A DNA stretch of 64,000 nucleotides from Minisyncoccia bacterium (GTDB lineage: Bacteria > Patescibacteriota > Minisyncoccia > Phycocordibacterales > Zambryskibacteraceae), in NCBI GenBank assembly GCA_041742965.1, contig JBGTNQ010000010.1:38079-102078 (forward strand), read 5' to 3'. Every line of letters begins with the position of its first letter. The first letter of the stretch is position 1. The notes below the pieces were generated by a model that had not been told where the DNA came from, ran no database searches, and saw only the letters and a list, made by a program, of their open reading frames with translations. The position numbers were made by a program, and so were the translations under genes. Below, one piece after another: positions 10,648-56,427 of the stretch.

Positions 10648-10790
10648 ATTGGTTCTGTTCTCTTGAGTTCAACCTTCATACTAAAGAGATAGGGGTTATT
10701 TTACAAATCCTTCATTTATCTAAAAGAGTGGGTTTCTTGTCTTTTAGGCTTGTAAGCTATAAGCTACAATCAATAAGATTTAAAGTAAAA

Positions 10791-13408: not shown

Positions 13409-14500
13409 ATGTCTATAATTATTTTTATTATTATATTGGCGATACTCATATTTGTTCACGAACTGGGACATTTTATAGTTGCCAAGAAGTCGGGTATAAA
13501 GGTTTCCGAGTTTGGAATAGGTTTTCCTCCCAAGCTTTGGGGTATTAAAAAGGGCGAGACAGAATACACTTTGAACGCTATTCCTTTTGGTGGTTTTGTG
13601 AAGATATTTGGAGAAGATCCAGACGAAGAAGCCCTCTCTGGTCCAGAAAAAAACAGAAGTATTACAAGTAAATCTCGTCCTATTCAGGCAGCTGTCTTGG
13701 TGGCCGGTGTGACTTTCAATATTATATTTGCCTGGCTCCTTATCTCTATTGGTTTTATGATAGGTCTTCCAACTTCTACCGCCCACGAAGGTAGGGGTGT
13801 GGTAGAAAACCCACGGACCGTTATCCAGAGTGTCTCTCCAAATTCCCCCGCAGAAAGAGCTGGTATAAAATCTGGAGATTCTATTGCTCAAATATCTTCC
13901 GGAGTTTATGTGGCAAATGAAGTGACTCCAGAAACTGTATCTAATTTTATTGAGGCTCATGGTGATGAAGAAATTTTGATTAATTTGCAAAGAGGTAAAG
14001 ATCTTCTGACTGTTTCATTGAATGCAGAAGAGGGGGTCGTGGCGGGCAAACTTGCTGTTGGTATTTCTATGGACACCATTGGAACCTTAAGTCTTCCAAT
14101 TCATTATGCTTTCTGGGAAGGAGCCAAAACAACAGGAACAGTTCTTTATTTTGTGACCGTGGGCATTTTATCTTTCTTAGGTGACGCTATTGTCGGACAA
14201 GGCGACCTCTCTCAAGTGACCGGTCCTGTAGGAATAGTGGGTATCGTGAGTGATGTCTCAACTTTGGGTTTTGTGTATTTGCTATCTTTCACAGCCTTGA
14301 TATCTCTTAACCTTGCGGTCATAAATCTATTGCCGTTTCCAGCTCTCGATGGAGGTAGACTTGTAATCGTATTTATAGAATCAATCATCCGAAGGCCACT
14401 TAGTCCAAAAATTCTTAATTGGGTGAATGGGGCAGGTTTCATCGTCCTCGTGCTTTTGATGCTTGTGGTTACCGCGCACGATATTTGGAAATTATTCTAA
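13409..14500 (+). CDS. rseP: RIP metalloprotease RseP (site-2 protease, M50)
   Basis: HELGHF zinc motif, PDZ domain and the C-terminal NLLPFPALDGG motif. Confidence 0.9.
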   Translation: MSIIIFIIILAILIFVHELGHFIVAKKSGIKVSEFGIGFPPKLWGIKKGETEYTLNAIPFGGFVKIFGEDPDEEALSGPEKNRSITSKSRPIQAAVLVAGVTFNIIFAWLLISIGFMIGLPTSTAHEGRGVVENPRTVIQSVSPNSPAERAGIKSGDSIAQISSGVYVANEVTPETVSNFIEAHGDEEILINLQRGKDLLTVSLNAEEGVVAGKLAVGISMDTIGTLSLPIHYAFWEGAKTTGTVLYFVTVGILSFLGDAIVGQGDLSQVTGPVGIVGIVSDVSTLGFVYLLSFTALISLNLAVINLLPFPALDGGRLVIVFIESIIRRPLSPKILNWVNGAGFIVLVLLMLVVTAHDIWKLF

Positions 14501-15913: not shown

Positions 15914-16993
15914 ATGATAAAAAGTTTTATCAAAAAACCATCCTTTGAGAAAATTCGTCGGTTGGTGTCAAATGACATCGGTATTGATTTGGGTACTGCA
16001 AATACCTTGGTTTATGTTCGTGGGGCGGGTGTCATAATCAACGAGCCCTCAGTGGTCGCCGTGAATCAAAAGACCGGACGTGTGGTTGCCGTTGGTGGAG
16101 AAGCAAAACAGATGCTTGGACGCACGCCGGCTCACATTGTGGCTGTCAGACCCCTGGTGGACGGAGTCATCTCTGATTTTGAGATTACAGAAGAAATGAT
16201 TACCTATCTTTTGAATAGAGCTCAAAAAGAAAATAAAAAAATATTTGGCCCGAGGGTTGTGGTAGGAGTACCCTCCGGTATTACGAATGTAGAAATTCGC
16301 GCGGTTAGGGATGCGACAAGAAATGCTGGCGCTGGAGAAGTGCATGTTGTAGAAGAGCCAATGGCTGCTGCCATAGGCATGAAGCTTCCAGTTCTTGAGC
16401 CGGTGGGCACAATGGTAATCGATATTGGTGGAGGTACATCAGACATTGCCGTCATCTCTCTTGGGGGTGTAGTTCGTTCCAAGAATTTGCGTGTAGCAGG
16501 AGATAAGTTGAACCAAGACATAATTTCTTATATTAGGAGTGAATTTAAGATTCTTGTGGGTGAAAAAACTGCAGAAAATATAAAGATGGCTATTGGTTCC
16601 GTAATTCCAGGAGACACATCTCTTGAAGCTTCTATAAAAGGTAGAGACCTCGTAACGGGCCTTCCTAGGGAAGTTGTTATTACTGATTCAGACATTCGCG
16701 AAGCGATAGCTCTATCGATTGCCAATCTAATAGAATCAACTCGCGAGGTTTTGGAAACTACTCCGCCTGAAATTCTATCCGACATTATGAATCGTGGAAT
16801 ATATCTAGCCGGCGGTGGTGCCCTCATAAAAGGGTTGGCTGAACTTATTCAGGAAGAGATAAAAATTCCAGTTATTATTGCTCCTGATCCACTTACTGCT
16901 GTTGCTCGTGGCACTGGTCTTATACTCGAAAATATCGAAGGTTTCTCTGAGGTGTTAATTCAAAACGAAGATGAACTACCATCTAAAAACTAA
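15914..16993 (+). CDS. mreB: Rod-shape determining protein MreB (paralog 2, in mreBCD-mrdA operon)
   Basis: IGIDLGTANTLVYV...NEPSVVAV, followed by mreC. Confidence 0.9.
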   Translation: MIKSFIKKPSFEKIRRLVSNDIGIDLGTANTLVYVRGAGVIINEPSVVAVNQKTGRVVAVGGEAKQMLGRTPAHIVAVRPLVDGVISDFEITEEMITYLLNRAQKENKKIFGPRVVVGVPSGITNVEIRAVRDATRNAGAGEVHVVEEPMAAAIGMKLPVLEPVGTMVIDIGGGTSDIAVISLGGVVRSKNLRVAGDKLNQDIISYIRSEFKILVGEKTAENIKMAIGSVIPGDTSLEASIKGRDLVTGLPREVVITDSDIREAIALSIANLIESTREVLETTPPEILSDIMNRGIYLAGGGALIKGLAELIQEEIKIPVIIAPDPLTAVARGTGLILENIEGFSEVLIQNEDELPSKN

Positions 16994-17768: not shown

Positions 17769-18024
17769 ATTAATATTTGTTCTTATGCTTTTGCTGTCGG
17801 TCTTTATTTTCCCTTGGTGGATTACAGCACCGTTGGCTATTTTGGGCACATTTTTTTTCATATCTTTTTACGAAGTTTTATTGATTGGATTTATTGCTGA
17901 CAGACTTTTTATTTTATCTATAGATAATGGTTTTATAAAAACATTTCCTTTCACTTTTTCAGCAATCTTAATCTTTCTGTTATCATTTTGGATACGAGAA
18001 CATATTCGTCTCGGCCAAAAATGA
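17722..18024 (+). CDS. mreD: Rod-shape determining protein MreD-like small membrane protein
   Basis: Roughly 90-100 aa polytopic membrane protein between mreC and mrdA. Start may be the ATG at 17749. Confidence 0.5.
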   Translation: MNLLGLEFIMYQKHYRLIFVLMLLLSVFIFPWWITAPLAILGTFFFISFYEVLLIGFIADRLFILSIDNGFIKTFPFTFSAILIFLLSFWIREHIRLGQK

Positions 18025-19727
18025 TGTCACTTTTCCGTATTTTTAGAAGATTCTACCGTTCATCTGATAGGGGTAGGAATGAAATCTATCCAGACGAGAT
18101 TTTTCTTGATGCTCGAAATCTTCCTGACTTCGATACCCACCAATTTGAAGGTAGGATAGAAAGACCAATTTCAAAGACCGTTTTTAAACTTACGGCTTTG
18201 GTATTCATACTTGTTGGAATCATCTTTGGTACGAAGTTGTGGATGCTTCAGGTGAAGATGGGTGAGGCTTATGAGATCAGGAGTCAGAATAATAATTTAA
18301 GACATACAACCATATTTGCTGAGCGTGGGATTATTTATGATAGAAATCAAACTCCACTCGCTTGGAATGAATTAAATCCTGGTGGAGATTTTTCTCTACG
18401 TGGCTATATACCAGATGGTGGGTTTTCTCATGTTTTGGGTTATGTGAAATATCCATCAAAAGATAGGTCTGGTATTTATTATGAAGAGCAGTTTATAGGC
18501 AAAGACGGGGTGGAATCTTATTATAATGATCTGCTTTCTGGTATTAATGGTCTGAAGATAACAGAAACGGATGCTTTAGGTAACGTGCAGTCAGAGAGCG
18601 TGCTTACTCTTCCAAAGGACGGAGAAAATATAACTCTTTCCATTGATGCGGAGGTAACAGCTAAGCTTTTTGAGGCTATGAAAAAGTTTTCAAGAGAAAG
18701 AGGTTTTCTTGGCGGAGCTGGGGTAATAATGGATGTGCACAATGGAGAAATTTTGGCACTTGTGAGTTATCCAGAATATAATAACAAAGTCTTAACTGAC
18801 GGCTCTGATAAAGAGGCCGTATCGCGTGAATTAAATGCCCCGGGCACTCCTTTTTTGGATAGAGTTATCTCTGGCCAATATATACCAGGCTCAATTATGA
18901 AGCCCTTTATCGCCATGGGGGTTCTAGGCGAAGGGGTTATTGATCCAATGAAAAAAATCCAGTCTGTAGGACAAATAAGTATTCCTAACCCATATAATCC
19001 AGAAATGAAAACTATTTTTCGTGACTGGAAAATCCATGGATGGGTGGATTTGAGGCATGCATTGTCCGTTTCTTCTGATGAATATTTTTATACTGTTGGT
19101 GGTGGATACGATGGGCAGAAAGGAATTGGTATAACCAACATAGAAAAATATGTTCGTATGTTTGGCTTCGGTGAACTGACGGGTATAGACTTATTTGGAG
19201 AAAAGGGCGGTGTCATCCCATCTCCAGCTTGGAAGGCTGAAAACTTCGATGGTGATGATTGGCGACTAGGGGATACGTATAACAGCTCTATAGGCCAGTA
19301 TGGGTTTCAGGTGACCCCGCTACAGGCAGTAAGGGCGGTAGCTTCCTTTGCTAATGGCGGAAAGCTGTTTACGCCGACTATAATTAAGTCTAATACAAAA
19401 TATAATGAAGGAGAAAGGATTCCACTTTCTTCTACTCACTTTGATATAGTCCGTGACGGGATGCGACTCGCTGTGACGGAAGGTACTGCTAGAGGTCTAT
19501 CAATGCCAGGAATTTCTGTGGCCGCAAAGACAGGAACAGCAGAATTGGGCGCGTCAAAAGAATTGGTGAACTCATTGGTTATGGGTTACTTTCCATTTGA
19601 AAATCCAAAATATACCTTCACTATTCTTATGGAAAGGGGTCCTTATGCTAACCAGATTGGTGCTACCGCCGTGATGAGAGAGCTCCTAGAGTGGATGTAT
19701 ATCAATACTCCAGAGTATGTGAGGTAG
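17988..19727 (+). CDS. mrdA: Penicillin-binding protein 2 (peptidoglycan D,D-transpeptidase)
   Basis: SIMKPF (SxxK), SSD(E) and KTGTA motifs. N-terminal TM. Start could be 18021. Confidence 0.85.
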   Translation: MDTRTYSSRPKMMSLFRIFRRFYRSSDRGRNEIYPDEIFLDARNLPDFDTHQFEGRIERPISKTVFKLTALVFILVGIIFGTKLWMLQVKMGEAYEIRSQNNNLRHTTIFAERGIIYDRNQTPLAWNELNPGGDFSLRGYIPDGGFSHVLGYVKYPSKDRSGIYYEEQFIGKDGVESYYNDLLSGINGLKITETDALGNVQSESVLTLPKDGENITLSIDAEVTAKLFEAMKKFSRERGFLGGAGVIMDVHNGEILALVSYPEYNNKVLTDGSDKEAVSRELNAPGTPFLDRVISGQYIPGSIMKPFIAMGVLGEGVIDPMKKIQSVGQISIPNPYNPEMKTIFRDWKIHGWVDLRHALSVSSDEYFYTVGGGYDGQKGIGITNIEKYVRMFGFGELTGIDLFGEKGGVIPSPAWKAENFDGDDWRLGDTYNSSIGQYGFQVTPLQAVRAVASFANGGKLFTPTIIKSNTKYNEGERIPLSSTHFDIVRDGMRLAVTEGTARGLSMPGISVAAKTGTAELGASKELVNSLVMGYFPFENPKYTFTILMERGPYANQIGATAVMRELLEWMYINTPEYVR

Positions 19728-24053: not shown

Positions 24054-25763
24054 ATGAAGTCAGAATCTTCCTTCAGGATAAGACTCCTTTCTTTTTTTAT
24101 ATTTTGTTTCGCTCTTTTTTTGGTGGTGAGGCTTTATGATTTACAGATAGTTTCTGCCGAAGTATATGCCAACAAAGCTGACCGACAGTATTTGCAATCA
24201 ACCTATCATTATTATGATAGAGGATCTATTTTCTTTCAGACAAAAGACGGTGAACCTGTATCAGCGGGTACACTAAAGACGGGCCTTATTGTGGCCGTGA
24301 ATCCTCAGGTAATTTCTAATCCAGAGCAGGTCTTTCAATCATTGAGCTCTGTCTTAGAACTTGATCGTGAAGATTTTTTTGTGAAAGCCACAAAGCCAAA
24401 TGATCCGTATGAAGAGATTGCTCGAAGGGTGCCTTTGGATAAAGCGGAGGTGATTGATGCTTTAAAAATTCCTGGGGTTGGTGTTTATAGAGAGAGATGG
24501 AGGTTTTATCCAGGGAACAATATGGCAGCACAGACAATCGGCTTCGTGGCTTATGATGAAGAAAATGAATTGGCTGGTAGATATGGACTCGAGCGATATT
24601 ATGATGGGGTCTTAAATAGAAACAATGACAGTGTTTATGTAAATTTTTTTGCTGAAATTTTCTCCAACATATCACAGACTCTCTCTGGTGACTTAGACAG
24701 AGAAGGGGATGTTATCACCTTCATAGAGCCCTCTGTTCAAGGTTTCTTAGAGCAGTCTCTTTTTAAAATGCATGAATCTTGGGATTCTGAATTTACTGGA
24801 GGGATAATAATGGACCCAATGACCGGTGCTATAGTGGCCATGGGCCTGGTGCCGTCTTTTGACCCAAATGATTTTAAAAACGAAGATGTATCAATTTTTT
24901 CTCACGACTTAGTGGAGAAAGTCTATGAGATGGGTTCTATCATAAAACCTCTCACTGTCGCCGCTGGTATTGATGCGGGGGCCATAACTCCGCAATCTAC
25001 ATATTATGATGCTGGTTTTATGACTCTCAATAACAAGACTTTTTCGAACTTTGATGGTAAGGCACGCGGACTAGTATCTATGCAAGAGGTTTTGAGTCAG
25101 TCATTGAATACTGGCGTAGCACATATTGTGCAACAAATGGGAAAGAAAAATTTTGCTGAATATATGTTTAATTTTGGCTTAGGGCAGGAGACCGGGATTG
25201 ATCTTCCAAATGAGACACATGGTTTGGTAGAAAACTTGAAAAGTCCTAGAGACATTGAATATGCCACCGCCTCATTCGGACAAGGTATTGCCCTCACTCC
25301 GATTCAAACCGTGAGAGCGCTGGCCGTGCTTGGGAATGGTGGCAAACTTATTAACCCGCATATTGCAGATCGTATTACCTATAAGACTTTGGGTTCAAAG
25401 AAAATAACTCCAGGTATTGATGTGCAAGTCTTAAAGAAAGAGACTTCTGAGGAGATTTCTAGAATGCTCGTGAAGGTGGTGGACGAAGCTCTTTTGGGGG
25501 GTACGGTTAAAATGGATAGGTTTAGTATTGCCGCGAAAACCGGTACTGCACAAATACCAAATCCAAGAGCTGGAGGCTATTATGATGATAGATTTTTACA
25601 TTCATTTTTTGGTTATTTTCCAGCCTTTAACCCCCGTTTTATTGTATTTTTATACTCAGTTAATCCAAGAGGGGCTAGATATGCGTCAGAGACACTCACG
25701 CATCCTTTCATGGATATTACGAAATTTCTGATAAACTATTATCAGATACCGCCGGATAGATAA
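24054..25763 (+). CDS. ftsI: Peptidoglycan D,D-transpeptidase FtsI (PBP3)
   Basis: N-terminal TM, SIIKPL (SxxK), SQS(LN) and KTGTAQ motifs. Confidence 0.85.
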   Translation: MKSESSFRIRLLSFFIFCFALFLVVRLYDLQIVSAEVYANKADRQYLQSTYHYYDRGSIFFQTKDGEPVSAGTLKTGLIVAVNPQVISNPEQVFQSLSSVLELDREDFFVKATKPNDPYEEIARRVPLDKAEVIDALKIPGVGVYRERWRFYPGNNMAAQTIGFVAYDEENELAGRYGLERYYDGVLNRNNDSVYVNFFAEIFSNISQTLSGDLDREGDVITFIEPSVQGFLEQSLFKMHESWDSEFTGGIIMDPMTGAIVAMGLVPSFDPNDFKNEDVSIFSHDLVEKVYEMGSIIKPLTVAAGIDAGAITPQSTYYDAGFMTLNNKTFSNFDGKARGLVSMQEVLSQSLNTGVAHIVQQMGKKNFAEYMFNFGLGQETGIDLPNETHGLVENLKSPRDIEYATASFGQGIALTPIQTVRALAVLGNGGKLINPHIADRITYKTLGSKKITPGIDVQVLKKETSEEISRMLVKVVDEALLGGTVKMDRFSIAAKTGTAQIPNPRAGGYYDDRFLHSFFGYFPAFNPRFIVFLYSVNPRGARYASETLTHPFMDITKFLINYYQIPPDR

Positions 25764-41859: not shown

Positions 41860-43140
41860 ATGGAACGGACGAAAAGGAGAATTTCTACCCTAGCCACCTC
41901 GCTTTCTGTGGGGTGGTTTTTGGCATTGCGACAAGTTAGGCGCTCCAGTATTGCTACCACAGTACTCATTATTTTTGTGATGATACTCACATTTTTGAAC
42001 CTTGTGGTTGTGCGTGGTATTTTGGTTGGCCTCATAGAGGGCTCAACAGATGTTTATAAGACAGCCTATGCAGGTGACATTTTAATCACCTCACTTCCCA
42101 AGAAAGACTCTATTGAAAACAGCCCTGATATATTAAGCACAGTCCGCTCTTTACCTTGGACAGAGTCAATGACATATCGCTTCGTTTCTGGCGGTTCTAT
42201 TGAGGCAAATTATAAAACTAAACTTCGTGAAACAGACGCTCCAAACTCTGCTGTCGGTTCTATAGTGGGGATAAATCCTGTAATTGAAAATGAAGCCACA
42301 AATTTGCGCTCATATATTATAGAGGGGGAATATTTAGATCTAAATGATTCAGATAGCATACTTCTAGGGGCAAATTTTTTGAGAAAATATCTAGATATTG
42401 AGGCACCCGGACTCTCTCTTTTGGAGGATGTGGAAGTTGGAGATACGGTTAGGGTTCAGATTGGAGAGAATACAAAAGAATTTTTACTTAAAGGAATACT
42501 ACAGAGTAAGGCAGATCAAGTGGATTTTAGAATGTTTGTCTTAGATACCACATTGAGAAGCATGTCAGGAAAGACTGATTTTAATGTGAATGAGATTAGT
42601 GTTTTTCTAAAACCGGGCACAGACCCAGAAATAGTGAAATCAGCTATTTTGAAAACTGGAGCAGGAGACTTTGCTAGAGTTCAGACTTGGGAGGAATCTT
42701 TGCCAAAATTTCTTCTCGATATAAAAAACACTTTCGGTCTTTTGGGTAATGTGGTCGGCTCCATTGGTCTTATCGCCGCTTCCATAACCATATTTATTAT
42801 CATATTCGTGAACGCTATTACTAGGAGGAAATTTATAGGAATTTTGAAGGGGATTGGTATTGATTCTATGGCTGTAGAATTTTCTTATGTTCTTCAGGCT
42901 TTTTTCTATGCCTTAATAGGTATAGGTATAGGTTTGCTGATTCTCTATGGTTTCCTAGTGCCTTTCATCGCTGAGAACCCTATTAAGTTCCCGTTTAGCG
43001 ATGGTATTTTGGTGGCAGAAATTCCCAATACTATGACGCGCGCAGGAATATTGATGATAGCTACTGTTATCGCCGGATATATACCCGCAAGGATTGTGGT
43101 AAAACAAAACACATTAGACGCGATTTTAGGAAGAAAATAA
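41860..43140 (+). CDS. ABC transporter permease, FtsX-like/MacB-type
   Basis: N-terminal TM, large periplasmic MacB-PCD-like domain, three C-terminal TM helices. Confidence 0.85.
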   Translation: MERTKRRISTLATSLSVGWFLALRQVRRSSIATTVLIIFVMILTFLNLVVVRGILVGLIEGSTDVYKTAYAGDILITSLPKKDSIENSPDILSTVRSLPWTESMTYRFVSGGSIEANYKTKLRETDAPNSAVGSIVGINPVIENEATNLRSYIIEGEYLDLNDSDSILLGANFLRKYLDIEAPGLSLLEDVEVGDTVRVQIGENTKEFLLKGILQSKADQVDFRMFVLDTTLRSMSGKTDFNVNEISVFLKPGTDPEIVKSAILKTGAGDFARVQTWEESLPKFLLDIKNTFGLLGNVVGSIGLIAASITIFIIIFVNAITRRKFIGILKGIGIDSMAVEFSYVLQAFFYALIGIGIGLLILYGFLVPFIAENPIKFPFSDGILVAEIPNTMTRAGILMIATVIAGYIPARIVVKQNTLDAILGRK

Positions 43141-43153
43141 TTTCCGTATTTAT

Positions 43154-43837
43154 ATGATAAGAGCAGAAAACATTGTAAAAAAATTCAAAAGTGGAGATTC
43201 GGAAATTATTGCCGTTAATGATGTTTCTTTTGAGGTTAAGACTGGAGAGTTCGTATCCATCACAGGGCGTTCTGGTTCTGGTAAATCTACTCTGATGTAT
43301 CAAATGAGTCTTCTGGACTACCCAACATCAGGAGATGTTTATATAGATGACAAAAGAGTGACCAACCTTTCTTCAGAGGACAGAACAAGGATAAGGCTTG
43401 AGCAATTAGGTTATATTTTTCAGGACTATGCTCTTATTCCAGAATTGTCTGCCATAGAAAATACTATGATACCCCTTCTAATGCAGGGTTTAACAAAAAA
43501 AGAAGCAGAACTTAGAGCCAAAGAATCTTTGGATAGAATTGGTTTAGGTGACAGACTAGACAATCTTCCAAGTCAACTTTCTGGAGGTCAACAACAGAGA
43601 GTATCTATTGCCAGAGCCATAGCTCATAAGCCAAAGATTGTTTTTGCCGATGAGCCAACGGCAAACTTAGATTCAGAAACTTCAGAAATAGTATTGAAAA
43701 ACTTTTTGGAACTGAATCGTGAAGGGCAAACTATTATTATGGTGACTCATGAAGCAGAATATGCTGCGCTCACTGATAGGGTGATTACTCTTTCTGACGG
43801 CAGTATAGTGGAAGATATTTATAATAAGCATAAATAA
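43154..43837 (+). CDS. ABC transporter ATP-binding protein (MacB/LolD-type)
   Basis: Walker A GRSGSGKST, signature LSGGQQQRVSIARA, Walker B IVFADEPT. Confidence 0.9.
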   Translation: MIRAENIVKKFKSGDSEIIAVNDVSFEVKTGEFVSITGRSGSGKSTLMYQMSLLDYPTSGDVYIDDKRVTNLSSEDRTRIRLEQLGYIFQDYALIPELSAIENTMIPLLMQGLTKKEAELRAKESLDRIGLGDRLDNLPSQLSGGQQQRVSIARAIAHKPKIVFADEPTANLDSETSEIVLKNFLELNREGQTIIMVTHEAEYAALTDRVITLSDGSIVEDIYNKHK

Positions 43838-43865
43838 TTAACCTGTTATAATCTAGAGAATAATT

Positions 43866-45389
43866 ATGAAAGAAAAAATAAAAAATGTTTCATTTTATAT
43901 AAAAAATAGGCCGAAAAGATTTATTCTTTTGGCATTATTTCTAGTTATCATCTTCTTTTCATTAGGAAAAAATGGCAACGATAGTATAAGAGACATATCG
44001 GTCGTTAGAGGTGATCTTGTTCAGGAGGTGGCCGTAATAGGTAAGACGAAAGCTTTTCAGAGCGTAGATTTGGCTTTTGAGACAAGTGGGAAGGTGTCTT
44101 ATGCTCCGGCTGTATTGGGCGAAAAGGTTTCTCGTGGCTCTGTTTTGGCTCAGTTGGAGACTTCTACAAAATTGGCGGAAGTTGCTAGGGCAAAGGCGAA
44201 TCTTTTTGAGGAAGAAGTGCGTCTTGCTGAGATAAGTCGTCAAAGTATGGATGGCTCTAATCAAGCCAGAGAGAGTATGGTGGCCACCATAAGGAACTCT
44301 TATACTCGAGTTGATGATGCTGTTCGTAATTATGCGGATCGTTTTTTCAAAGACCCAGCCACTCAGTCAACTTATTTTGAGCTGATTATTGTCGACGGGG
44401 CGACGACCTACCACTTTTTGGTAAATGATAGTTTAAAAAGGGAATTAAATATACTTCGTCGTGGTTTGGAAAAAGATATACAGGATTGGCAGGCTGATTT
44501 AAATAGTCTATCAATTAATTCAGATTTAGGGCCTTTTGTTTTAGAGACGGAAAAAGTTTTAAATGACACTAAGATTTTTTTGGACAAGTTGGCTTCTGCT
44601 ATAAATTCAATATCGAATGTTGATTTTCAATACCAGTCTAATCTGAGTGGATACAAGGCCGATGTTTCAACTGCTAGAACATCTGTTTCTACAGCTATTT
44701 CTAATTTGATTATAGCGAAAGAAAAACTTTCGGCATCACCTCAAGATATTTCTGGCGTAGGGGGGCCTTCTTCTCTAGATGCTATTTTGGCTCAAGAAGC
44801 GAGAGTGGCCCAATATCGAGCACAATTACAGAGTGCAGAGGCGGACCTTTCTCGTTTGACTATATATTCTCCAATTGACGGCACAGTAACAAGGCAGGAT
44901 GCTAAACTCGGTGAAATAGTGACGGCAGGAAAACCTGTGGTATCTGTAATTTCAGTAGATGAATTAGAAATTGAAGCGAATGTATCTGAGGTGAATATAG
45001 GAAAAGTGAATGTTGGCAATTCAGTTAAGATAATATTCGATGCTTTTCCTGGCCAGGAATTTTCTGGTGAGGTAATTTTTATTGATCCTGCAGAAACCAT
45101 GGTTGACGGGGTGGTGAATTATAAAATAAAAGTAGCATTCACTGACGATTCTAGTCTTATAAAGAGTGGGCTAACATCGAGTATTTATATTAAAACTTTG
45201 GAGTCTCAAGGGGTTTTGAAAATTCCTTTGTATGCCGTCAGGGAGAGAGACGGTCAATCTTTTGTTTCTAAGGTTGTAAATGGTCAAGTTGTTGAGACTC
45301 CGATAAATGTGGGCTTTGTTGGAAATGACAGCTTTGTAGAAATTATCTCCGGTCTTTCTGAAGGCGAAGTTGTGAGGGTTGGGGAGTAG
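43866..45389 (+). CDS. HlyD/MacA-like periplasmic adaptor with long coiled coil
   Basis: N-terminal TM, biotinyl/lipoyl-like half-motifs flanking a ~250-aa coiled coil, beta-barrel C-domain. Confidence 0.65.
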   Translation: MKEKIKNVSFYIKNRPKRFILLALFLVIIFFSLGKNGNDSIRDISVVRGDLVQEVAVIGKTKAFQSVDLAFETSGKVSYAPAVLGEKVSRGSVLAQLETSTKLAEVARAKANLFEEEVRLAEISRQSMDGSNQARESMVATIRNSYTRVDDAVRNYADRFFKDPATQSTYFELIIVDGATTYHFLVNDSLKRELNILRRGLEKDIQDWQADLNSLSINSDLGPFVLETEKVLNDTKIFLDKLASAINSISNVDFQYQSNLSGYKADVSTARTSVSTAISNLIIAKEKLSASPQDISGVGGPSSLDAILAQEARVAQYRAQLQSAEADLSRLTIYSPIDGTVTRQDAKLGEIVTAGKPVVSVISVDELEIEANVSEVNIGKVNVGNSVKIIFDAFPGQEFSGEVIFIDPAETMVDGVVNYKIKVAFTDDSSLIKSGLTSSIYIKTLESQGVLKIPLYAVRERDGQSFVSKVVNGQVVETPINVGFVGNDSFVEIISGLSEGEVVRVGE

Positions 45390-48616: not shown

Positions 48617-48762
48617 AGTTTTTGATTTAATTCGTATTAACAGAACTTTATTGTAGCTTAAAAAATAGTGATGGGGTAGGTATTGCTTTTTATTTTTTAA
48701 TGTTGTATTATCTATATTGGAAGTTCGTTTTGTTGTACGTCTACCACTCTTACCATGGAGAT

Positions 48763-49215
48763 ATTATGAGTAGTGAGAACACCATCTGTGAGCGTGGCAC
48801 CCTGTCTCTCCTCCCTCGGCCATCTGGAATGTTGCAAAGGCACCACGATGTGTTGAAGTTTTGTTTTATCGGTGAGACACTTTACGCCGTTCCTTTTCAT
48901 GGTTCGGTAGTGGTGTATCATCACGAGGCGCTTGAAGAAGTCGTGAGTGTGGGCTTCAGCAAGACTGCGGATGTTGTGGTGTCGACTGATACTCTGGCAA
49001 TCATCCAGGATTCATCAAGGAGGCTCCTTAGGGCGTTCGATCGAACTCGGCCCCATGAAGGGTCAGAGTCTGAAGGAAGTCATGTTACTGATTCCGAGCA
49101 CCCACTTGGTGACAAGGCGGTAGGCCGAGCTATCGAGCGCCCATCAGGACTACTGACTGACTCTTTTCGGGAAACCCAGCTGGGGCGTACCATTGGGATT
49201 GGTATGATGCAATAG
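48763..49215 (+). CDS. Hypothetical protein (150 aa), GC-rich cassette-type gene
   Basis: GGAG 6 nt before ATG 48763. GC-rich. Hairpin ggcccc...ggggcc at 49240-49268. Confidence 0.4.
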   Translation: MMSSENTICERGTLSLLPRPSGMLQRHHDVLKFCFIGETLYAVPFHGSVVVYHHEALEEVVSVGFSKTADVVVSTDTLAIIQDSSRRLLRAFDRTRPHEGSESEGSHVTDSEHPLGDKAVGRAIERPSGLLTDSFRETQLGRTIGIGMMQ

Positions 49216-49551: not shown

Positions 49552-50130
49552 ATGAACACCAAAAAACAAGAACAAAGAGATAGGTTGCTAGATTTCTACA
49601 AAAAAAACAGGAGAATGCCCGGGTATCAGGAGATTATGTCTCTTTTAGGATTCAAATCTAAAAACTCCGTTCATAAATTTATTTCTTGGCTGGTAGAAGA
49701 GGGTATAGTGTCCAAGGATTCTCGTGGCAAGATAACTCCAAACTCTCGATTTGATGAGATACCAATATTGGGTCTCGTAGAGGCTGGTATGCCATCTCTG
49801 GCAGAGCAAGATGAGCTAGACACCATAAGTATCGAGGACTTGGTTATAGATGATAAAGAAAAAAGTTACATTTTGGAGGTCAAGGGTGACTCGATGATTG
49901 ATGCACACATTGCAGAGGGTGATTATGTGCTCGTGGAACGAAAAGGAGAGCCTAGGGTAGGGGACATAGTCATAGCAGAGATTGATGGTGGTTGGACAAT
50001 GAAATATTTTCGTAAAGACAAGAAGGGCAGACCCTATCTGGAGCCCGCAAATAAAAATTATGACAATATGTATCCTGAAGAAAGTTTCAATGTGGTAGCA
50101 ATCGTGAAGGCTGTCATAAGAAAGTTCTGA
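49552..50130 (+). CDS. lexA: LexA repressor
   Basis: N-terminal wHTH, S24 peptidase domain (GDSMIDAHI Ser, RKDKKG Lys region). Confidence 0.9.
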   Translation: MNTKKQEQRDRLLDFYKKNRRMPGYQEIMSLLGFKSKNSVHKFISWLVEEGIVSKDSRGKITPNSRFDEIPILGLVEAGMPSLAEQDELDTISIEDLVIDDKEKSYILEVKGDSMIDAHIAEGDYVLVERKGEPRVGDIVIAEIDGGWTMKYFRKDKKGRPYLEPANKNYDNMYPEESFNVVAIVKAVIRKF

Positions 50131-50497
50131 TACTTCAAAGGAGTGTTGGACGCTGGGAGTATAGTGACCACGATACTTAGGGGATGTCTAGTTTGAGGTG
50201 ACTGTGGATAAGAATATGAGTGTCGCACAATATATCTTTTCCGACTCTAAACAATAAAAAATATGGCTAGAATACTCAGCGGCCCTTCCCTACAGTATTT
50301 TAGGAAATTAAACCCTTACATCTAATTAATTTATATATCTGAACCCGCCTCTATCTTGGGTGTTGTCCTATGCCTACATTCTTCCCTTCAAGCCTAACAG
50401 TATAAAAATAAGATTATTGGAGATTTTGAGCCATACTCAAATTTGGTCTTCCCTACTAAAAAACTATTTTGTAAGAGATCTCTAAAAAAAGTTTGAC

Positions 50498-50902
50498 TTA
50501 TTTGACCCTTGATATGATGGCAGAACCAACATGATCTATTATTTCATCAGGAACTATTGAAGCTTTGACAATGTATCTGAAGGCTCCAAGTTTCATTCCT
50601 TTTTCTATATGAGACGGTTCGCTGAGATTTGAAAGTATAATAACGGGAATACTTTTGAGTTTATCATTTGACTTTATTTGCTCTAATACTTTGAAACCAT
50701 CTATTCCTCCAGGAAACATTATGTCTAGTAGTATTACATCTGGTGAATCTTGTTCTAGACTAGAAATAGCATCGTCCCCGTTTTCGCAATTATTTAAAAT
50801 ACTTCCAGCTTTAGTAAGTTTGTCTTTTATTATTTTGGTCAAAAATTTATCGTCTTCAACCAGGAAAATCTTTTTACCATTTATTGCTTCTAGGCTCTTC
50901 AT
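50498..50902 (-). CDS. Stand-alone response regulator receiver domain (CheY-like)
   Basis: KIFLVEDD acidic pocket, phospho-acceptor Asp in VILLDIMFPG, conserved Ser and Lys. Confidence 0.85.
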   Translation of the reverse strand: MKSLEAINGKKIFLVEDDKFLTKIIKDKLTKAGSILNNCENGDDAISSLEQDSPDVILLDIMFPGGIDGFKVLEQIKSNDKLKSIPVIILSNLSEPSHIEKGMKLGAFRYIVKASIVPDEIIDHVGSAIISRVK

Positions 50903-50929
50903 CTTAGTTTAATAGGTATCAAAATTATA

Positions 50930-51691
50930 TCACAAGTTTTTGTCTATTGGCAATATGATTTTGAATACAGTTCCTAGTCCCTCTGTACTATCAAAGTCTA
51001 TATCCCCACCATGTTTTTCTACAATATATTTTGATATAAAGAGGCCCAGCCCAGTTCCTCCCATGTCTGCTTCCTTTGCGTTTTTACCTCTGAAGAATTT
51101 TTTGAAGACATCTTTTTTATCCTCTTCTGGTATTCCTATACCAGTATCTGTTACAGAGACTTCAATTTTATTTTGAGGTTTTTCCTCTATTTTGACTGAT
51201 ACGGAGCCTCCATCTGCTGTATAAAGAACAGCATCTCCTATTATATTTTCAAAAACATAGTTTATTTTTTCTTCGTCAGCTATTATCTCAGGAAAGTTCT
51301 GGGAGGTTTCTTCTACGGACATCTTTAAAGATTTTTTTCTTATTTCTGGTTCTAATCTCTTTATTATTTTACTTATAAGTTTATTTAAATTGATCTTTGA
51401 AAGATTTAACTTAAATACCCCGCCAATCTCTTTTTCAGTCAATAGTATTCCCTTGACTATCTTTATTGCTCGCTCATTGCTTTCATAGACGGTTTCTAGA
51501 ACTTCTCTCTGGGCGGGTGTTAGATTGTCGTTATTTTCGCCAAAAAGATAGTTTATAGCCCACTTATTTGTCGTCAAGGCTGTTTTGAGTTGGTGAATAG
51601 CTACAGTTACGAGCTCTGATTTTTCCGATCCGTTTGATCCCTTCTTATTGTGTTCTAAGTCCATATGTTTCGAAGTTGGGGGGCACAACAT
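50930..51691 (-). CDS. Cytoplasmic sensor histidine kinase (HisKA plus HATPase_c)
   Basis: G1/G2 boxes (DTGIGIPEE, GGTGLGLFISK), no TM segment. Start may be the ATG at 51664. Confidence 0.85.
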   Translation of the reverse strand: MLCPPTSKHMDLEHNKKGSNGSEKSELVTVAIHQLKTALTTNKWAINYLFGENNDNLTPAQREVLETVYESNERAIKIVKGILLTEKEIGGVFKLNLSKINLNKLISKIIKRLEPEIRKKSLKMSVEETSQNFPEIIADEEKINYVFENIIGDAVLYTADGGSVSVKIEEKPQNKIEVSVTDTGIGIPEEDKKDVFKKFFRGKNAKEADMGGTGLGLFISKYIVEKHGGDIDFDSTEGLGTVFKIILPIDKNL

Positions 51692-54649
51692 CTATATTCT
51701 AAATATCTCCTTAAGGATACCATTTTTTATATTCATGGGCTCTGATGTAAATGCTGGTTCAAGTGCCTCTGGGCCCACTCTTTTCTCCACTTTTACATAA
51801 TACTCTCCATTGGGAACTAGGCAAAAATACCTTCCCAAGCTATCAGTGATGGTGTGTCGTATTTCTATATTGGTAGATGCTTGAAACACCTTAACCAAGG
51901 CAAATTTTAGAACATCACCACTCTTGTCAAACACCTTCCCATACCTTTGTGGTTTGGCTAAATGTCTGATTACAATAACAACTAAATATCCAAGTAGAAT
52001 TAAGAAGTTGTATGTATTCTGGTTTAGGTAAAATGATATACCAGACCAGATTGTTCCTAGGAATATTAATATACTTGTAAATCTTTGGATAAATAACTCG
52101 TGCCTTGAGAAGAACCTAGTGACACCAGTATCTCTTTTTTCTGCTTGGTTCCAGTCAAAACCCTGGCTATCCATAGGGATGTCTCTAGTAACTAGAGGCT
52201 TATCACCCTCTATCACTATGTTTCCACCGAAGTATAGGTTGTCATATATTAAATCTCTGGTTTTTCCAAATAGTCTTCTTGATGGAAATCCATAGTTTGT
52301 CTTCTCTACAGCTATTTGGTACACACCTGGAGGAGCAATAAATCCATATCTTCCATCTAGGTCTGTAATAGCAGATGATATTTCTTTACCATCCTGACTT
52401 AGGAGAGTAACCATTGCTGGGTCAAGTGGCTCTTTGGTGGAGCTATCGTAAATAGTTCCCCATGGATTTTTCCTTCTTCTAGAGCCCAAGAAAATACCCA
52501 AAGGATTAAGACCTCTTCTTGCGTTAAGTATGGATAATGCATTTGGAGTAGAAATAACTTGCAGGGCGGTTGCCATTCCACCGCCCAATAAAGCTATTGA
52601 AGAGATGTAGATAACCATCTCATCAATTGAAGGCGTTGATCCTCCAAACATTCCATCTGGTGGGTCTAATCGTGGATCGAATACGGGGACCAATGGTTCA
52701 TCTACTACAATTTCCTCTACCACGATTCCTTCTTCGATAGGTTCTTCTGGTTCAGGGACTGTTGGGGTTTCTTGTGTTGGTGTAACTTGAGCAATAATAA
52801 CTGGGGGTTGTGGTAATTCTACGGGTGGTGGTAATACGGGTGGAGGTGGGGGTGGCACAGACTCATCTTCTATTGGCGGTTGAATAGCTGGACCTTTTTG
52901 TCTTGCTCCACCACCAGAAGAACCCCCTTCTTCAGGGGCGGGGTTTACCGTTACAGATACGCTGTCTCCATCAGAGAATGCACCATTAACACAAGTTATT
53001 GTATAGAGAGTTGTTTCTGTGGGACTCAAATCTTCATCTCCTGATGTTGCTGTGGAGTCAGTCCAATCAGCGGAACACGAGAGAGTATCTGTGGATGTCC
53101 AACTAAGGTTGAAGCTTTCTCCAGCTGTAATTGTATCTGGAACAGCAGTTAATGTTACTGAAGGTTCTGGGTCTCCTTCAGATGCACCAAGAACCTGGGG
53201 ACCGCAAGCTTGAATACCTCCTTCCTCAAAGAAGCGCAATACAGGGTATGTCCCCTCCTGCTCAAGCCAAACCGTGTCAAAGTCCCAAGTGTCTAGGGGC
53301 GGGTTAGTTGTGTTGTTGAAAAAATAATTTGTATTAGGAACCCCGACTGTGTTTACGGCAGTACAGCCAATGTTTGAACCAGCACCTTCTAAACCGACAC
53401 ACAAGGCCTGAGATCCGCTTCGTATAAAATCATAAAACGAATTTGTTATTGTATTGTTGGCATATACATAACCCACAAGACCACCAATCTCTGCGCCAGC
53501 AGAAACAATCTCGGACGCAGAGAAACTGTTCTCTATTTCTGAAAGGAAAGAGGCATTTCCTAGTTCTCCAACAAGCCCACCGACCCAATTTGTACCAGAG
53601 ATAGTTCCTGTTGCATAGGAGTTTGAAATAATGACCCCTCTGGTTTCACCAACAAGTCCCCCCATTGTAATACCATTAGCAGAAGATGCGTTCCCAATGG
53701 AATATGAATTGTTTATACTTCCTCTGTCTAAATACCCAATTAAACCTCCAGAATATCCCCAATCGTCCGGTTCCGGTATAGAAGTTACTGCGCCAGAGGC
53801 AAAGCTTTCGGATACATAGTAATTTTCTGCTAAACCAGTGTCCCCTCTGAAATGTCCCACAAGGCCACCTGCATAATAATTTGCACTAACATCACCAGTA
53901 GCATAACTTCTCGTTATTGTGGATCTGCTAGAATAGCCAACCAAACCTCCAACCTCCACACCCCAATCAGCACTTATAATATTTCCAGAACTGCAAGAAT
54001 TGTTAATGGAAGAAGTATATATTCCGCCAACAAGACCTCCTGCGGGCCCTGTTTGGTTTGTAATGTTTCCTGTAGAAAAACTGTTCGTGATGGAGCCATT
54101 GGGTTCAATAGAACCAGCAATTCCACCGACATGCCCGCCATCTACGGTAATTGGCATATTACTAGAAACGTTTTCTATGGTAGTGCCTCCATCTGCCATA
54201 CCAACAAGAGATCCGGCAAAGTTTGTATTTGTGGCAGTAATGGAACCTCCATCAAAGTTTATGTCTTGAAATGCTGCCCCTAAAGTAATGGCAAAAAGAC
54301 CTAGGCCATCACAGGTGTCACATTCTATAAAAAGATCACTTATGGTGAAATTTTGCCCATTTAAACTTCCTGTGAAGACAAGTTCATTTGGGCCTCCTAT
54401 TGGTGCAAAACCCTCTCCCCCATTCCAATTGACCGTATCAGAACAATCAATGTTGTTCATTAGCATATAATCAGATGCTAGTGTCCAGCCGACATGGTCT
54501 CCAGCATTAGAACCAATTGCCTGCAAATCAGCACAGTCATATACTTCAAAATGACTACTAGAATTGATTAAAAAGGGTGGATAAAAAACTAAAGCCAGAA
54601 AAGTAAAAGACGCAAAATATGGAAAGCTTTTTATTAAAAAACGAGACAT
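51692..54649 (-). CDS. Large (985 aa) GLUG-repeat cell-surface protein with Pro-rich linker, TM segments and carboxypeptidase-regulatory-like domains
   Basis: Signal peptide. At least 10 GGLVG(Y/H/E) GLUG-type repeats. PPPPPVLPPPVELPQPPV linker. Two CarboxypepD_reg-like beta-sandwich segments (GTIYDSS...DLDGRYGF, ...TDSLGRYFCLV) interleaved with TM helices. Confidence 0.8.
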   Translation of the reverse strand: MSRFLIKSFPYFASFTFLALVFYPPFLINSSSHFEVYDCADLQAIGSNAGDHVGWTLASDYMLMNNIDCSDTVNWNGGEGFAPIGGPNELVFTGSLNGQNFTISDLFIECDTCDGLGLFAITLGAAFQDINFDGGSITATNTNFAGSLVGMADGGTTIENVSSNMPITVDGGHVGGIAGSIEPNGSITNSFSTGNITNQTGPAGGLVGGIYTSSINNSCSSGNIISADWGVEVGGLVGYSSRSTITRSYATGDVSANYYAGGLVGHFRGDTGLAENYYVSESFASGAVTSIPEPDDWGYSGGLIGYLDRGSINNSYSIGNASSANGITMGGLVGETRGVIISNSYATGTISGTNWVGGLVGELGNASFLSEIENSFSASEIVSAGAEIGGLVGYVYANNTITNSFYDFIRSGSQALCVGLEGAGSNIGCTAVNTVGVPNTNYFFNNTTNPPLDTWDFDTVWLEQEGTYPVLRFFEEGGIQACGPQVLGASEGDPEPSVTLTAVPDTITAGESFNLSWTSTDTLSCSADWTDSTATSGDEDLSPTETTLYTITCVNGAFSDGDSVSVTVNPAPEEGGSSGGGARQKGPAIQPPIEDESVPPPPPPVLPPPVELPQPPVIIAQVTPTQETPTVPEPEEPIEEGIVVEEIVVDEPLVPVFDPRLDPPDGMFGGSTPSIDEMVIYISSIALLGGGMATALQVISTPNALSILNARRGLNPLGIFLGSRRRKNPWGTIYDSSTKEPLDPAMVTLLSQDGKEISSAITDLDGRYGFIAPPGVYQIAVEKTNYGFPSRRLFGKTRDLIYDNLYFGGNIVIEGDKPLVTRDIPMDSQGFDWNQAEKRDTGVTRFFSRHELFIQRFTSILIFLGTIWSGISFYLNQNTYNFLILLGYLVVIVIRHLAKPQRYGKVFDKSGDVLKFALVKVFQASTNIEIRHTITDSLGRYFCLVPNGEYYVKVEKRVGPEALEPAFTSEPMNIKNGILKEIFRI

Positions 54650-54812
54650 CTATTTATTCAAATATTGTCTCTAAATACTAACATTTTTTTTCAGTCTAAA
54701 AGGCCCTCCCACCATTCAAATGTGTAGTGCATAAAGACAAACATAGGCAAATAAACTGGTGCGAGTATGAAAAAAAGTACTTTTTTAGGTGTCATATTAG
54801 GAGTGTTCCGTA

Positions 54813-55100
54813 TTAATTTTGATTTTTGTCTACCCAATCTTTCAAAAGCTCGAATCCTTCTTTTGTTATTTTCCAAATGATATCAATAAATATATCGTTC
54901 CATAAGAAAGAAGCGGGTAGTACTAAGAATTTTTCCCAAATCAGTACTGCAAATTTTTTTATATAAACTACAATCTCCCCAAAATCCGGTGATTTCAATA
55001 ATCCCACTATATCGAACTTAAAAACTACTTGAATGAGAATTAATGCTGTGATTATTGATATAATCGCCCCTATAAACCCCCTTTCTTTCTGTGTTTTCAT
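54813..55100 (-). CDS. Hypothetical small membrane protein (95 aa)
   Basis: One TM helix. Overlaps the out-of-frame 61-aa ORF 54691-54876, a possible frameshift or two tiny genes. Confidence 0.3.
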   Translation of the reverse strand: MKTQKERGFIGAIISIITALILIQVVFKFDIVGLLKSPDFGEIVVYIKKFAVLIWEKFLVLPASFLWNDIFIDIIWKITKEGFELLKDWVDKNQN

Positions 55101-55110
55101 TAGTTAAAGA

Positions 55111-56427
55111 CTAGTTAACTGGAGGTAAATATGCAAGTGGATCCAGATAAGCATTTAATCCGGCCATAGGGATGCTGACTTCCTTACAGAAATTACTTGA
55201 TGTATATCTTTGTACTTTAACCCCTTCCGAAGCAAAAAGACCGAGGTGAAGATGTGGTCCAGTTGAATATCCAGATCCAGGCATACCTGGTTGTCCGCCA
55301 GAGTATCCTATAACCTCTCCAGAAGCCACGGTTTGGCCCTGAGATACCTTTATACCAGAAAGATGAGCATACATGCTGGAAAGTCCATTACTGTGCTTTA
55401 TTAGTATCCATCTACCATAAGAATAGCAACCTCTTTGGTCGTCGGTATTACCGACGCCCTCAACTACACCGGCACCCACTGATTTTATTGCCGTTCCAAC
55501 GCTTGCTCTAAAATCTACTCCATTGTGTGTTCCCGAAACGTAAAGTCTTCCAGAGTCACTAGTTCTACCAAATGGTTGGGTCACAAATATGTTATCTAGT
55601 GGCCAAGCCAGCACACCAGGTTTTTGAGTTGGTAGCTTTGTTTTATCGATGTGGGCCTGTAGTTGTGATTCAAATTGAAACAATTCCAATTGGAATTGCC
55701 TTCCTCTCTCGAGGTTGTCTGCAAGTTGTTTTTTGTACTCAGCTTCCTGGTTTTTTGTTTGTGTTAAAAGGACTGCTTTTGCCTGTTTATTCTCTTCTAC
55801 AATTTCTTTCTGACTAGCGAGTTGGCTCTTAAAACCCAGGAGACTCTTTTTTGCCTGCTCACCTTCCGTTTTTTTCCCCTCAAGCTCTACCCTTAGGTCT
55901 GCCAATTCATTTGTCCGGTTTTTAACCACTATTTGAAACCTCCTGATTGTTTCTAAAGAATCCCATAACTCACTGATATTCTTATATTTCATCAACGATT
56001 CAATTAGAGATGTTTCCCCGTTTTGGTATAAAATTTTTATTGTTTCTCCTATAGCTTCCTTATTTTGTTCAATTTGTTTTTCTTTATTAGTCAGCTCTAT
56101 GGTTATTTTTTGGATAGATAGCTCTGTTCCGCCTATTCTATTTTCTGTAACCTTGAGGTCGTTTTGTAACTTTTTGCCGGTAGCATCAAGGGCGTTAACT
56201 GTTCCTTGGAGACTTTTGGCTTGCTTGTTTGTCTCTTGGATTTGGGCCTCAAGTTTTGCTTTTTCAGCATCCAGGGCTTCTTTTTCTTTTTGTTTTTTTA
56301 ATATTTCTTGTCTTAATTCTTCCAAACTCATCGTTTGAGCATAGGTGTGGATAGGAAAAACAAATCCGATAGACACAGCGCCAAGGAGAAGAGTTATCAA
56401 AATTAAAATAGTAGCTTTATTTATCAT
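55111..56427 (-). CDS. M23 family metallopeptidase with N-terminal coiled coil (EnvC-like murein hydrolase)
   Basis: Signal anchor, ~250-aa coiled coil, M23 motifs (HNGVDF, SMYAHLS, GPHLHLG). Confidence 0.85.
   Translation of the reverse strand: MINKATILILITLLLGAVSIGFVFPIHTYAQTMSLEELRQEILKKQKEKEALDAEKAKLEAQIQETNKQAKSLQGTVNALDATGKKLQNDLKVTENRIGGTELSIQKITIELTNKEKQIEQNKEAIGETIKILYQNGETSLIESLMKYKNISELWDSLETIRRFQIVVKNRTNELADLRVELEGKKTEGEQAKKSLLGFKSQLASQKEIVEENKQAKAVLLTQTKNQEAEYKKQLADNLERGRQFQLELFQFESQLQAHIDKTKLPTQKPGVLAWPLDNIFVTQPFGRTSDSGRLYVSGTHNGVDFRASVGTAIKSVGAGVVEGVGNTDDQRGCYSYGRWILIKHSNGLSSMYAHLSGIKVSQGQTVASGEVIGYSGGQPGMPGSGYSTGPHLHLGLFASEGVKVQRYTSSNFCKEVSIPMAGLNAYLDPLAYLPPVN

Follow-up and report, generated by a model that had tools for sequence, protein, structure and literature searches.

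In several bacterial two-component systems (LiaF-LiaSR, BceAB-BceRS and the YycH/YycI- and SpdC-dependent WalK systems) the histidine kinase lacks a sensor domain of its own and is encoded beside the membrane protein that supplies or gates its signal (PMC3543457; PMC11009047; bioRxiv 10.1101/2020.02.28.969956; PMC5013275; PMC5854430). Here we analyse a locus within a 64-kb stretch of a Minisyncoccia (Patescibacteria) contig, hereafter the window, in which the gene for a 985-amino-acid (aa) protein with GLUG repeats is followed by those of a histidine kinase and a stand-alone receiver. Comparison with other Patescibacteria loci revealed that what recurs beside the kinase-receiver pair is the C-terminal transmembrane (TM)/β-sandwich module found in the 985-aa protein, whatever ectodomain this module carries. 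Patescibacteria (Candidate Phyla Radiation, CPR) have reduced, often host-attached cells with very few signalling proteins, and we know of essentially no account of how they perceive hosts or their own envelope. The initial annotation of this DNA, made from its letters alone, described the three genes as a co-directional block, and their shared minus strand, direction and coordinates all hold in the list of open reading frames (ORFs):

51692-54649, minus strand: 985-aa GLUG protein (ORF list and Pfam)
50930-51691, minus strand: HisKA/HATPase kinase, 253 aa (annotated start 51664, giving 244 aa; ORF list, Pfam and NCBIfam)
50498-50902, minus strand: stand-alone receiver, 134 aa (Pfam Response_reg)

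Pfam searches agreed with the domains first assigned to these proteins, GLUG and CarboxypepD_reg both scoring above cut-off, HATPase_c and Response_reg being supported and HisKA falling just below. The gap between the 985-aa gene and the kinase gene is 0 nucleotides (nt), as originally described, for the longest kinase ORF, but 27 nt if the kinase starts at Met10, as in its database entry (P0141, 244 aa).

Linkage was assessed in 80 genome loci chosen for the module alone, namely those most similar to the window's module, out of 163 loci examined overall. A kinase and/or a single-domain receiver directly follows the 3' end of the module gene in about 14 of the 80, and also in L092 and L165. 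Module gene, kinase and receiver follow each other in this order on one strand in six of the 80 loci (L007, L014, L040, L048, L059 and L080), as they do in L092 and L165 outside this set; a receiver directly follows the module gene in L016, L026 and L060; and the arrangement is convergent in the remainder, with a kinase-receiver pair in L037 and L077 and a receiver only in L063, L070 and L081. No kinase was detected in L016, L026, L060, L063, L070 or L081, which have module and receiver only. Gaps between module and kinase genes range from -47 to +66 nt (five of them ≤ 6 nt), so that frames often abut or overlap. Of the 15 receivers in the 80 loci, 14 are encoded by the first or second gene downstream of the module gene (+1 or +2), which gives a naive binomial p of 7e-12, or about 6e-6 when collapsed to six lineages; neither value is phylogenetically corrected.

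The kinases and receivers of these cassettes align as one orthologous family, with a conserved receiver sequence (orthologues of 119–134 aa at the equivalent position in other loci) and a distinctive kinase H-box, 'HQL..x.L...KW...FGKI(S/T)xEQ'. The heads of the adjoining module proteins differ, being GLUG in the window, BNR/Asp-box in L165 (module, kinase and receiver in order; kinase 41% identical) and elsewhere for the most part without Pfam match, or else immunoglobulin (Ig), and the partner is for this reason the module rather than GLUG. Among the 163 loci GLUG was found only in the window, in its 57%-identical relative (L001/L002) and in L003, which has neither kinase nor receiver. The initial proposal of a surface protein tied to a phosphorelay thus survives in part: the link recurs in distant Patescibacteria lineages, but the GLUG head is not the part that is tied. 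Homologous loci, which had been suggested as a check, are present in related genomes, with adjacency extending beyond local synteny; the closest full-length relative, P0002 (57% identity), has a gene order from MraY to LexA identical to that of the window, which shows shared synteny and nothing further. When metagenome contigs were scanned reciprocally with the kinase alignment, most matches were generic kinases of unrelated bacteria, the patterns being too general to yield a frequency estimate; L092, a further case of module, kinase and receiver in order, was the only cassette carrier among the matches listed.

Adjacency to the module is accompanied by loss of the kinase's own sensor region. 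Among kinases with the family H-box, 9 of 10 next to a module have 17–77 residues before the phosphorylated histidine, whereas 8 of 10 encoded elsewhere have 170–412 (one-sided Mann-Whitney p = 0.001, uncorrected for phylogeny). The short, module-adjacent kinases are either soluble or possess two TM helices joined by a 3–10-aa loop and no HAMP domain, the latter layout occurring in four of them (L007, L014, L040 and L048). An intramembrane-sensing layout, defined as two TM helices with a spacer of < 25 aa and no extracellular domain, is present in L007, L040 and L048 and probably in L014, and absent from the window's kinase. Sensor loss on adjacency would be expected if the module protein replaced the kinase's own sensor, and the pattern parallels LiaF-LiaS and BceAB-BceS (PMC3543457; PMC11009047; bioRxiv 10.1101/2020.02.28.969956).

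The conserved unit of the 985-aa protein is its C-terminal ~300 aa, the GLUG part being one interchangeable head. TM helices alternating with two carboxypeptidase-regulatory-like sandwiches had been noticed initially, and both sandwiches are matched by Pfam CarboxypepD_reg (PF13620; E = 1.4e-16, 61 bits against a cut-off of 32.3, in two stretches) with hydrophobic segments between them; those of the whole protein comprise residues 4-28, 678-696, 857-875 and 880-898. The AlphaFold2 (AF2) model of the module has a predicted local distance difference test score (pLDDT) of 78.8, and Foldseek matched its sandwiches to SdrD B, CnaB and the transthyretin-like domain of carboxypeptidase D. The module is laid out as follows:

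51695-52633, minus strand: conserved C-terminal membrane module, residues 673-985 (alignment A1, AF2 and Foldseek)
52550-52618, minus strand: TM1, residues 678-700
between TM1 and sandwich 1: juxtamembrane amphipathic helix ending in RRRK
52160-52465, minus strand: transthyretin-like sandwich 1, residues 729-830
between sandwich 1 and the TM2-TM3 hairpin: 'FDWN' helix
51956-52093, minus strand: TM2-TM3 hairpin, residues 853-898
51695-51937, minus strand: transthyretin-like sandwich 2, residues 905-985

Alignment A1, which comprises 14 module tails with that of the window first, has 23 invariant columns (including 'PWGxVYDS', 'ITDLDGRYGF' and 'FDWN'), all of them present in the window, and follows a pattern of C-terminal TM helix, 'PWGxVYDSxTKxPLDPA...ITDLDGRYGF' sandwich, 'FDWN', TM hairpin and second sandwich. 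Residues 683-985 of the window's protein score 413.7 bits against the A1 profile, a partly circular figure since this module is included in A1. In the distant full-length matches P0004, P0012, P0040 and P0043 the tail is the main part shared with the 985-aa protein, their heads being BNR plus GLUG, GLUG alone or laminin-G.

Scored on 1.84 billion cluster representatives, the A1 profile matched 8,088, 4,384 and 2,426 sequences at E ≤ 1e-3, 1e-10 and 1e-30 respectively, all counts being of representatives clustered at 50% identity. Among the best 150 matches the module almost always ends at the last residue of the protein, and these proteins are 271–3,040 aa long; the label 'giant' first given to the 985-aa protein is accordingly relative, as its family runs from ~270 to 3,000 aa. 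Species-representative genomes contain at least 521 confirmed copies, and nearly all module records are labelled Patescibacteria, Paceibacterota, Nomurabacteria or Saccharibacteria. A word-indexed protein database search for the module gave 19 matches and missed known relatives; it was replaced by the genome scan and the exhaustive profile search. Neither Pfam nor NCBIfam holds a model for the module as a unit, and we found no description of it in the literature. The module defines a large, unnamed Patescibacteria family, C-terminal in its proteins and found under many different ectodomains. A 6,305-aa protein, P0273, gave 61 separate matches to sandwich 1; this giant tandem CarboxypepD_reg-like array is not a member of the family.

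CarboxypepD_reg, SdrD_B and CnaB folds are typically extracellular, and the distribution of charge in the module points to a different placement here. Topology was derived from the positive-inside charge bias and a simple hydrophobicity scale. Across 79 members, mean counts of lysine plus arginine (K+R) are 4.0 for the 12 aa that lead into sandwich 1, again 4.0 for the 15 aa preceding TM2, and 3.3 for the 15 aa that follow TM3, as against 0.3 for the ~4-aa loop between TM2 and TM3. Two good TM candidates (apparent insertion free energy, dG, < 2) before sandwich 1 were found in none of these 79 members, and the second candidate in the window contains RR and has a dG of +10.5. Given an extracellular head, the K/R clusters indicate a single pass (TM1), a cytoplasmic sandwich 1, the TM2-TM3 hairpin and a cytoplasmic sandwich 2, so that both sandwiches are probably cytoplasmic. 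These positive-inside statistics argue against the 'envelope-spanning' sandwich structure that had been suggested.

The kinase had been called soluble, in agreement with its lack of any hydrophobic segment or sensor region. It contains HATPase_c (2e-26, 93 bits) and a HisKA match just under cut-off (1.1e-5, 25.8 bits against 26.9), and its H33, in the 'IHQLKTALTTNKW' H-box ('IHQLKTAL'), aligns with the H-box of WalK- and HK853-type structures and is invariant in alignment A2. The G1 ('DTGIGI'), F ('FKKFFRG') and G2 ('GGTGLGL') boxes are present. The N-box is altered, as HMMER alignments to PDB kinases place Asp153 at the position of the Mg-ATP-binding Asn ('NIIGDAVLY' against 'NLxDNAIKY'). This Asp is conserved in the kinases of the window, L001 and L164, and all other cassette kinases keep Asn. 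In EnvZ, the substitution N347D is kinase-negative and phosphatase-positive (Dutta and Inouye, 1996, as cited in PMC5727384, its ref. 19). The likeness lies in the Asp at the equivalent N-box position, with the difference that the change seen here is natural and lineage-conserved and leaves the G1, F and G2 boxes intact; because of this EnvZ N347D-like change the window's kinase lineage may be phosphatase-biased or a weak kinase. Among NCBIfam models the kinase missed the full-length cut-offs of WalK (157.8 against 725), PnpS (154.6 against 400) and PhoR (123.6 against 334), the matches being limited to the catalytic core. We rejected the idea that the pair forms a WalK-like system acting on the cell wall and linked to the M23 peptidase and dcw genes: this synteny is limited to the window and its close relative, and the WalK score is far under cut-off.

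The receiver was correctly described as single-domain: Response_reg (4e-22, 78.8 bits, cut-off 30.2) spans residues 12-123 of its 134, and no output domain is present. Its phospho-chemistry residues are canonical (E16-D17-D18, D60, S91 and K113). None of the NCBIfam models for single-domain regulators reached cut-off, the best matches being the receiver parts of PleD and PhoB. As it has no DNA-binding or other output domain, the receiver would have to exert its effect by contacting another protein, or else serve as a relay or sink.

On the genomic evidence, we see an even chance that these genes encode a three-component system whose sensor-less kinase receives its input from the module protein. 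Proteins of the family would share one plan, with an extracellular head that varies, carried on a Pro-rich wall-spanning stalk and followed by the conserved ~300-aa C-terminal module; here the head would be the GLUG β-helix plus an Ig-like domain. The module protein would serve as the input device: binding or mechanical load at the ectodomain would be relayed by TM1 and the hairpin to the sandwiches in the cytoplasm or, in relatives with two-TM kinases, passed on within the membrane. This signal would set the kinase/phosphatase balance of the partner kinase, and the phosphorylation state of the receiver would act by protein-protein contact. We infer the physical coupling, the direction of the signal, the cytoplasmic placement of the sandwiches and the output. 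More tentatively, the family might constitute a hitherto unrecognised Patescibacteria receptor class in which interchangeable heads (GLUG β-helix, BNR propeller, Ig and others) on a common module with two cytoplasmic transthyretin-like domains form a plug-in sensor for minimal kinase/stand-alone-receiver pairs, with a role in contact or envelope sensing and a post-translational rather than transcriptional output.

Several observations weigh against this three-component reading. In about 80% of cases the sampled module gene has neither a kinase nor a receiver in its vicinity, five cassettes are convergent, which makes co-transcription impossible, and the linkage statistics are not phylogenetically corrected and come from the 80 loci closest to the window's module. 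The L164 kinase, the closest non-syntenic relative (46% identity, with the same Asn-to-Asp change), is encoded between uvrB and uvrA, and no module gene adjoins it on the 2.9-kb contig. Asp153 matches the kinase-negative EnvZ N347D as cited in PMC5727384, so that the window's kinase may fail to autophosphorylate. Cytoplasmic CarboxypepD_reg/transthyretin-like domains would also be unusual, their placement here being derived from charge bias and a hydrophobicity scale.

Alternatively, though in our view unlikely, the kinase-receiver pair could be an independent small signalling unit, for instance one that has a cytoplasmic input or is linked to DNA damage, and its position beside a surface-protein gene could reflect inherited gene order in small, compact genomes. 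Its support includes the convergent cassettes, the pair between uvrB and uvrA in L164 (positions 1-2947) and the abutment of the pair on lexA in the window (49552-50130) and in L001; this association with DNA-damage genes may be coincidental or real. Most module genes, moreover, occupy other conserved contexts. In the commonest, found in about 35 of the 80 loci (L005, L006, L010, L013, L021, L024, L028 and L034 among them), a fixed run comprises L28 (opposite strand), a ~210-aa M50-like protein (5–6 TM helices), often a large Peptidase_S74 surface protein, the module gene and rpsL-rpsG-fusA; in a second, the module gene is followed by a 261-aa one-TM protein, FtsW/RodA and FolD. Against mere inheritance, adjacency recurs at ~30–45% protein identity, on separated branches of the module tree (a crude neighbour-joining tree from a 1,267-column alignment, of qualitative use only) and with different upstream genes and ectodomains. 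The near-constant position of the receivers, the abutting or overlapping frames and the correlation of sensor-region loss with adjacency argue in the same direction.

Wiring in the reverse direction, which we regard as improbable, would make the surface protein the output: the kinase would sense a cytoplasmic cue, and the phosphorylated receiver would bind the module's cytoplasmic sandwiches and alter the clustering, conformation or turnover of the surface protein. A receiver without output domain needs a protein partner, the module next door offers two conserved, predicted cytoplasmic domains, and the six loci with module and receiver in which a kinase was not detected would fit such an arrangement; module-adjacent kinases, however, have no recognisable input domain for a cytoplasmic cue, and the swapping of ectodomains on a constant module resembles a receptor family. 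Least probable of all, and very unlikely in our judgement, is a purely structural anchor or stalk with four membrane passes and both sandwiches outside, as in CnaB or SdrD-B stalks, leaving a soluble kinase nothing to contact: the usual location of these folds, the Foldseek matches and the two consecutive moderately hydrophobic stretches before sandwich 1 in many members (a crude Kyte-Doolittle count often gives five segments) speak for it, but it would place ~11 conserved K/R outside and almost none inside, it requires a second TM segment that the dG values above do not support, and it does not explain the recurrent kinase/receiver adjacency.

Under the three-component reading, the module family (at least 2,400 sequence clusters) is a testable candidate for the missing input layer of Patescibacteria and, if the reading is true, would represent a new type of accessory sensor for two-component systems, with the transthyretin-like fold put to unusual use in the cytoplasm. 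Should the signalling link fail, the module would still merit definition as a family, being a major C-terminal anchor of CPR surface proteins.

The part of the 985-aa protein that precedes the module comprises:

54566-54649, minus strand: signal peptide or signal anchor, residues 1-28 (hydrophobic 4-28 after R3 and K7)
53240-54553, minus strand: GLUG right-handed β-helix ectodomain, residues ~33-470 (Pfam, AF2 and Foldseek)
52880-53197, minus strand: probable Ig-like β domain, residues ~485-590, 'SFNLSWTSTDTLSCSADW...YTITC' (sequence pattern only)
52634-52879, minus strand: Pro/acid-rich stalk, residues 591-672 (composition)

Pfam Glug (PF07581) matched with E = 9e-15 (54.4 bits against a cut-off of 20.5). 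At least 10 GLUG repeats had been counted; the type is right but the number is not, as nine clear GG[LI][VIA]G-type motifs were found in residues 146-389, spaced by 27–40 aa. The AF2 model of this region is a β-helix with pLDDT > 90, and its best Foldseek matches were the β-helix of streptococcal IgA1 proteases (7uvk, 6xja) and BACOVA_03286 (3n6z). An IgA1-protease-like enzyme of the ZmpA (M26) type was nonetheless ruled out, as the protein has no HExxH motif and no peptidase domain in Pfam and scored 19.2 bits against the NCBIfam ZmpA cut-off of 3000. A sortase-anchored surface protein was likewise ruled out, there being no LPxTG-like motif ([LIN]Px[TSA][GNDA]) anywhere in the 985-aa protein, in which ~290 aa follow the first C-terminal TM helix. 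Residues ~485-590 are a probable Ig-like β domain on the basis of a sequence pattern also conserved in P0002; the segment has an AF2 pLDDT < 50 and no Pfam match. The poly-Pro linker noted initially is real (29% Pro and 21% Asp/Glu in residues 591-672) and presumably spans the cell wall; comparable Pro/Thr/Ser-rich stretches precede the module in P0004, P0012, P0040 and P0122.

Upstream of the 985-aa gene, small membrane ORFs and then an EnvC-like M23 peptidase had been listed as neighbours. The ORFs are as follows:

54691-55100, minus strand: two small membrane ORFs, one of 95 aa (54813-55100) and one of ~34 aa (from ATG 54795 to 54691; hydrophobic segments)

Both may be co-transcribed with the 985-aa gene and are at most candidate members of the system; they had no Pfam matches and were not seen in the distant module-kinase-receiver cassettes. 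L001/L002 have a 112-aa one-TM ORF at the equivalent position. The next gene (55111-56427) does encode a coiled coil followed by M23, but not a degenerate M23 of EnvC type: an EnvC-type amidase activator was rejected because the HxxxD (HNGVD) and HxH (HLH) metal ligands are kept, and an active endopeptidase is likely.

On the other side, the spacer between the convergent receiver and lexA genes, first described as 370 nt and AT-rich, measures 367 nt and is only mildly AT-rich (36.5% GC against 40% in the window). Rfam and tRNA scans of the spacer gave no match, and promoter and terminator scans gave counts at chance level. A block of 25–30 nt at 50216-50245, between the receiver and lexA stop codons, is identical in the 57%-identity relative L001 (~14205-14235), and the remainder of the spacer cannot be aligned between the two. 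Read on the minus strand this block is GTCGGAAAAGATATATTGTGCGACACTCAT, with an imperfect inverted repeat GTCGg-N14-GCGAC; it occurs once in the window, L001 and L002 are its sole other carriers among the 163 loci, and its candidate functions are those of small-RNA element, terminator or operator.

The window is an unusually wall-centred stretch for a small genome. Two MreB paralogues (10728-11804 and 15914-16993) and two PBP2-type transpeptidases (17988-19727 and 24054-25763) lie within 15 kb, and an RseP-like M50 protease, VanY, a Mur ligase and a MraY-FtsW-MurG run were also detected. At 41860-45389, a MacB-like ABC permease (FtsX plus MacB_PCD), an adjacent 227-aa ORF (43154-43837) at the place expected for a MacB-type ATPase, and a HlyD-type membrane-fusion protein form a tripartite-pump layout in a presumably single-membrane organism. 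The ORFs at 4075-4995 (minus strand, 306 aa) and 48700-49215 (plus strand, 171 aa) had no Pfam match at E ≤ 1e-4. With phmmer run over every ORF of the window, one kinase and one receiver domain were found, those described above, and no CheA/CheW, Hpt or second response regulator.

The individual components are all known, namely GLUG, the transthyretin-like sandwich, the HisKA kinase and the receiver, as is the logic of an accessory sensor acting on a minimal kinase. With the streptococcal IgA1 protease/ZmpA the 985-aa protein shares GLUG motifs and the predicted β-helix, and it lacks their M26 metalloprotease domain, HExxH and LPxTG. Like MSCRAMMs (SdrD) and CnaB pilins, it has a head, a Pro-rich wall-spanning region, a hydrophobic segment and a positively charged tail, with module sandwiches of the SdrD-B/CnaB/transthyretin-like fold; unlike them, it has no sortase signal, its sandwiches follow the membrane pass and are predicted to be cytoplasmic, a TM hairpin separates them and the ~300-aa module is conserved as a unit. 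The receiver resembles the single-domain regulators CheY, DivK, Spo0F and PilH in being receiver-only with all phospho-chemistry residues, and differs in scoring below cut-off with their NCBIfam models and in having none of the CheA/CheW, Hpt or second-regulator partners within the window. With the accessory-dependent systems (LiaF-LiaSR, BceAB-BceRS and YycH/YycI- or SpdC-WalK) the cassettes share a sensor-less kinase beside a membrane-protein gene and, in L007, L014, L040 and L048, the two-TM, short-loop, HAMP-less kinase layout. In contrast to these systems, the window's kinase has no TM helices and carries Asp in place of the N-box Asn, the response regulator lacks a DNA-binding domain, and the partner, a large modular surface protein, contains two transthyretin-like domains and is neither an ABC transporter nor a LiaF- or YycH/I-type protein. 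What appears to be undescribed is the existence of the module as a conserved unit, together with the predicted cytoplasmic position of its sandwiches, the interchangeable heads above it and its recurrent pairing with a kinase and a receiver devoid of DNA-binding output.

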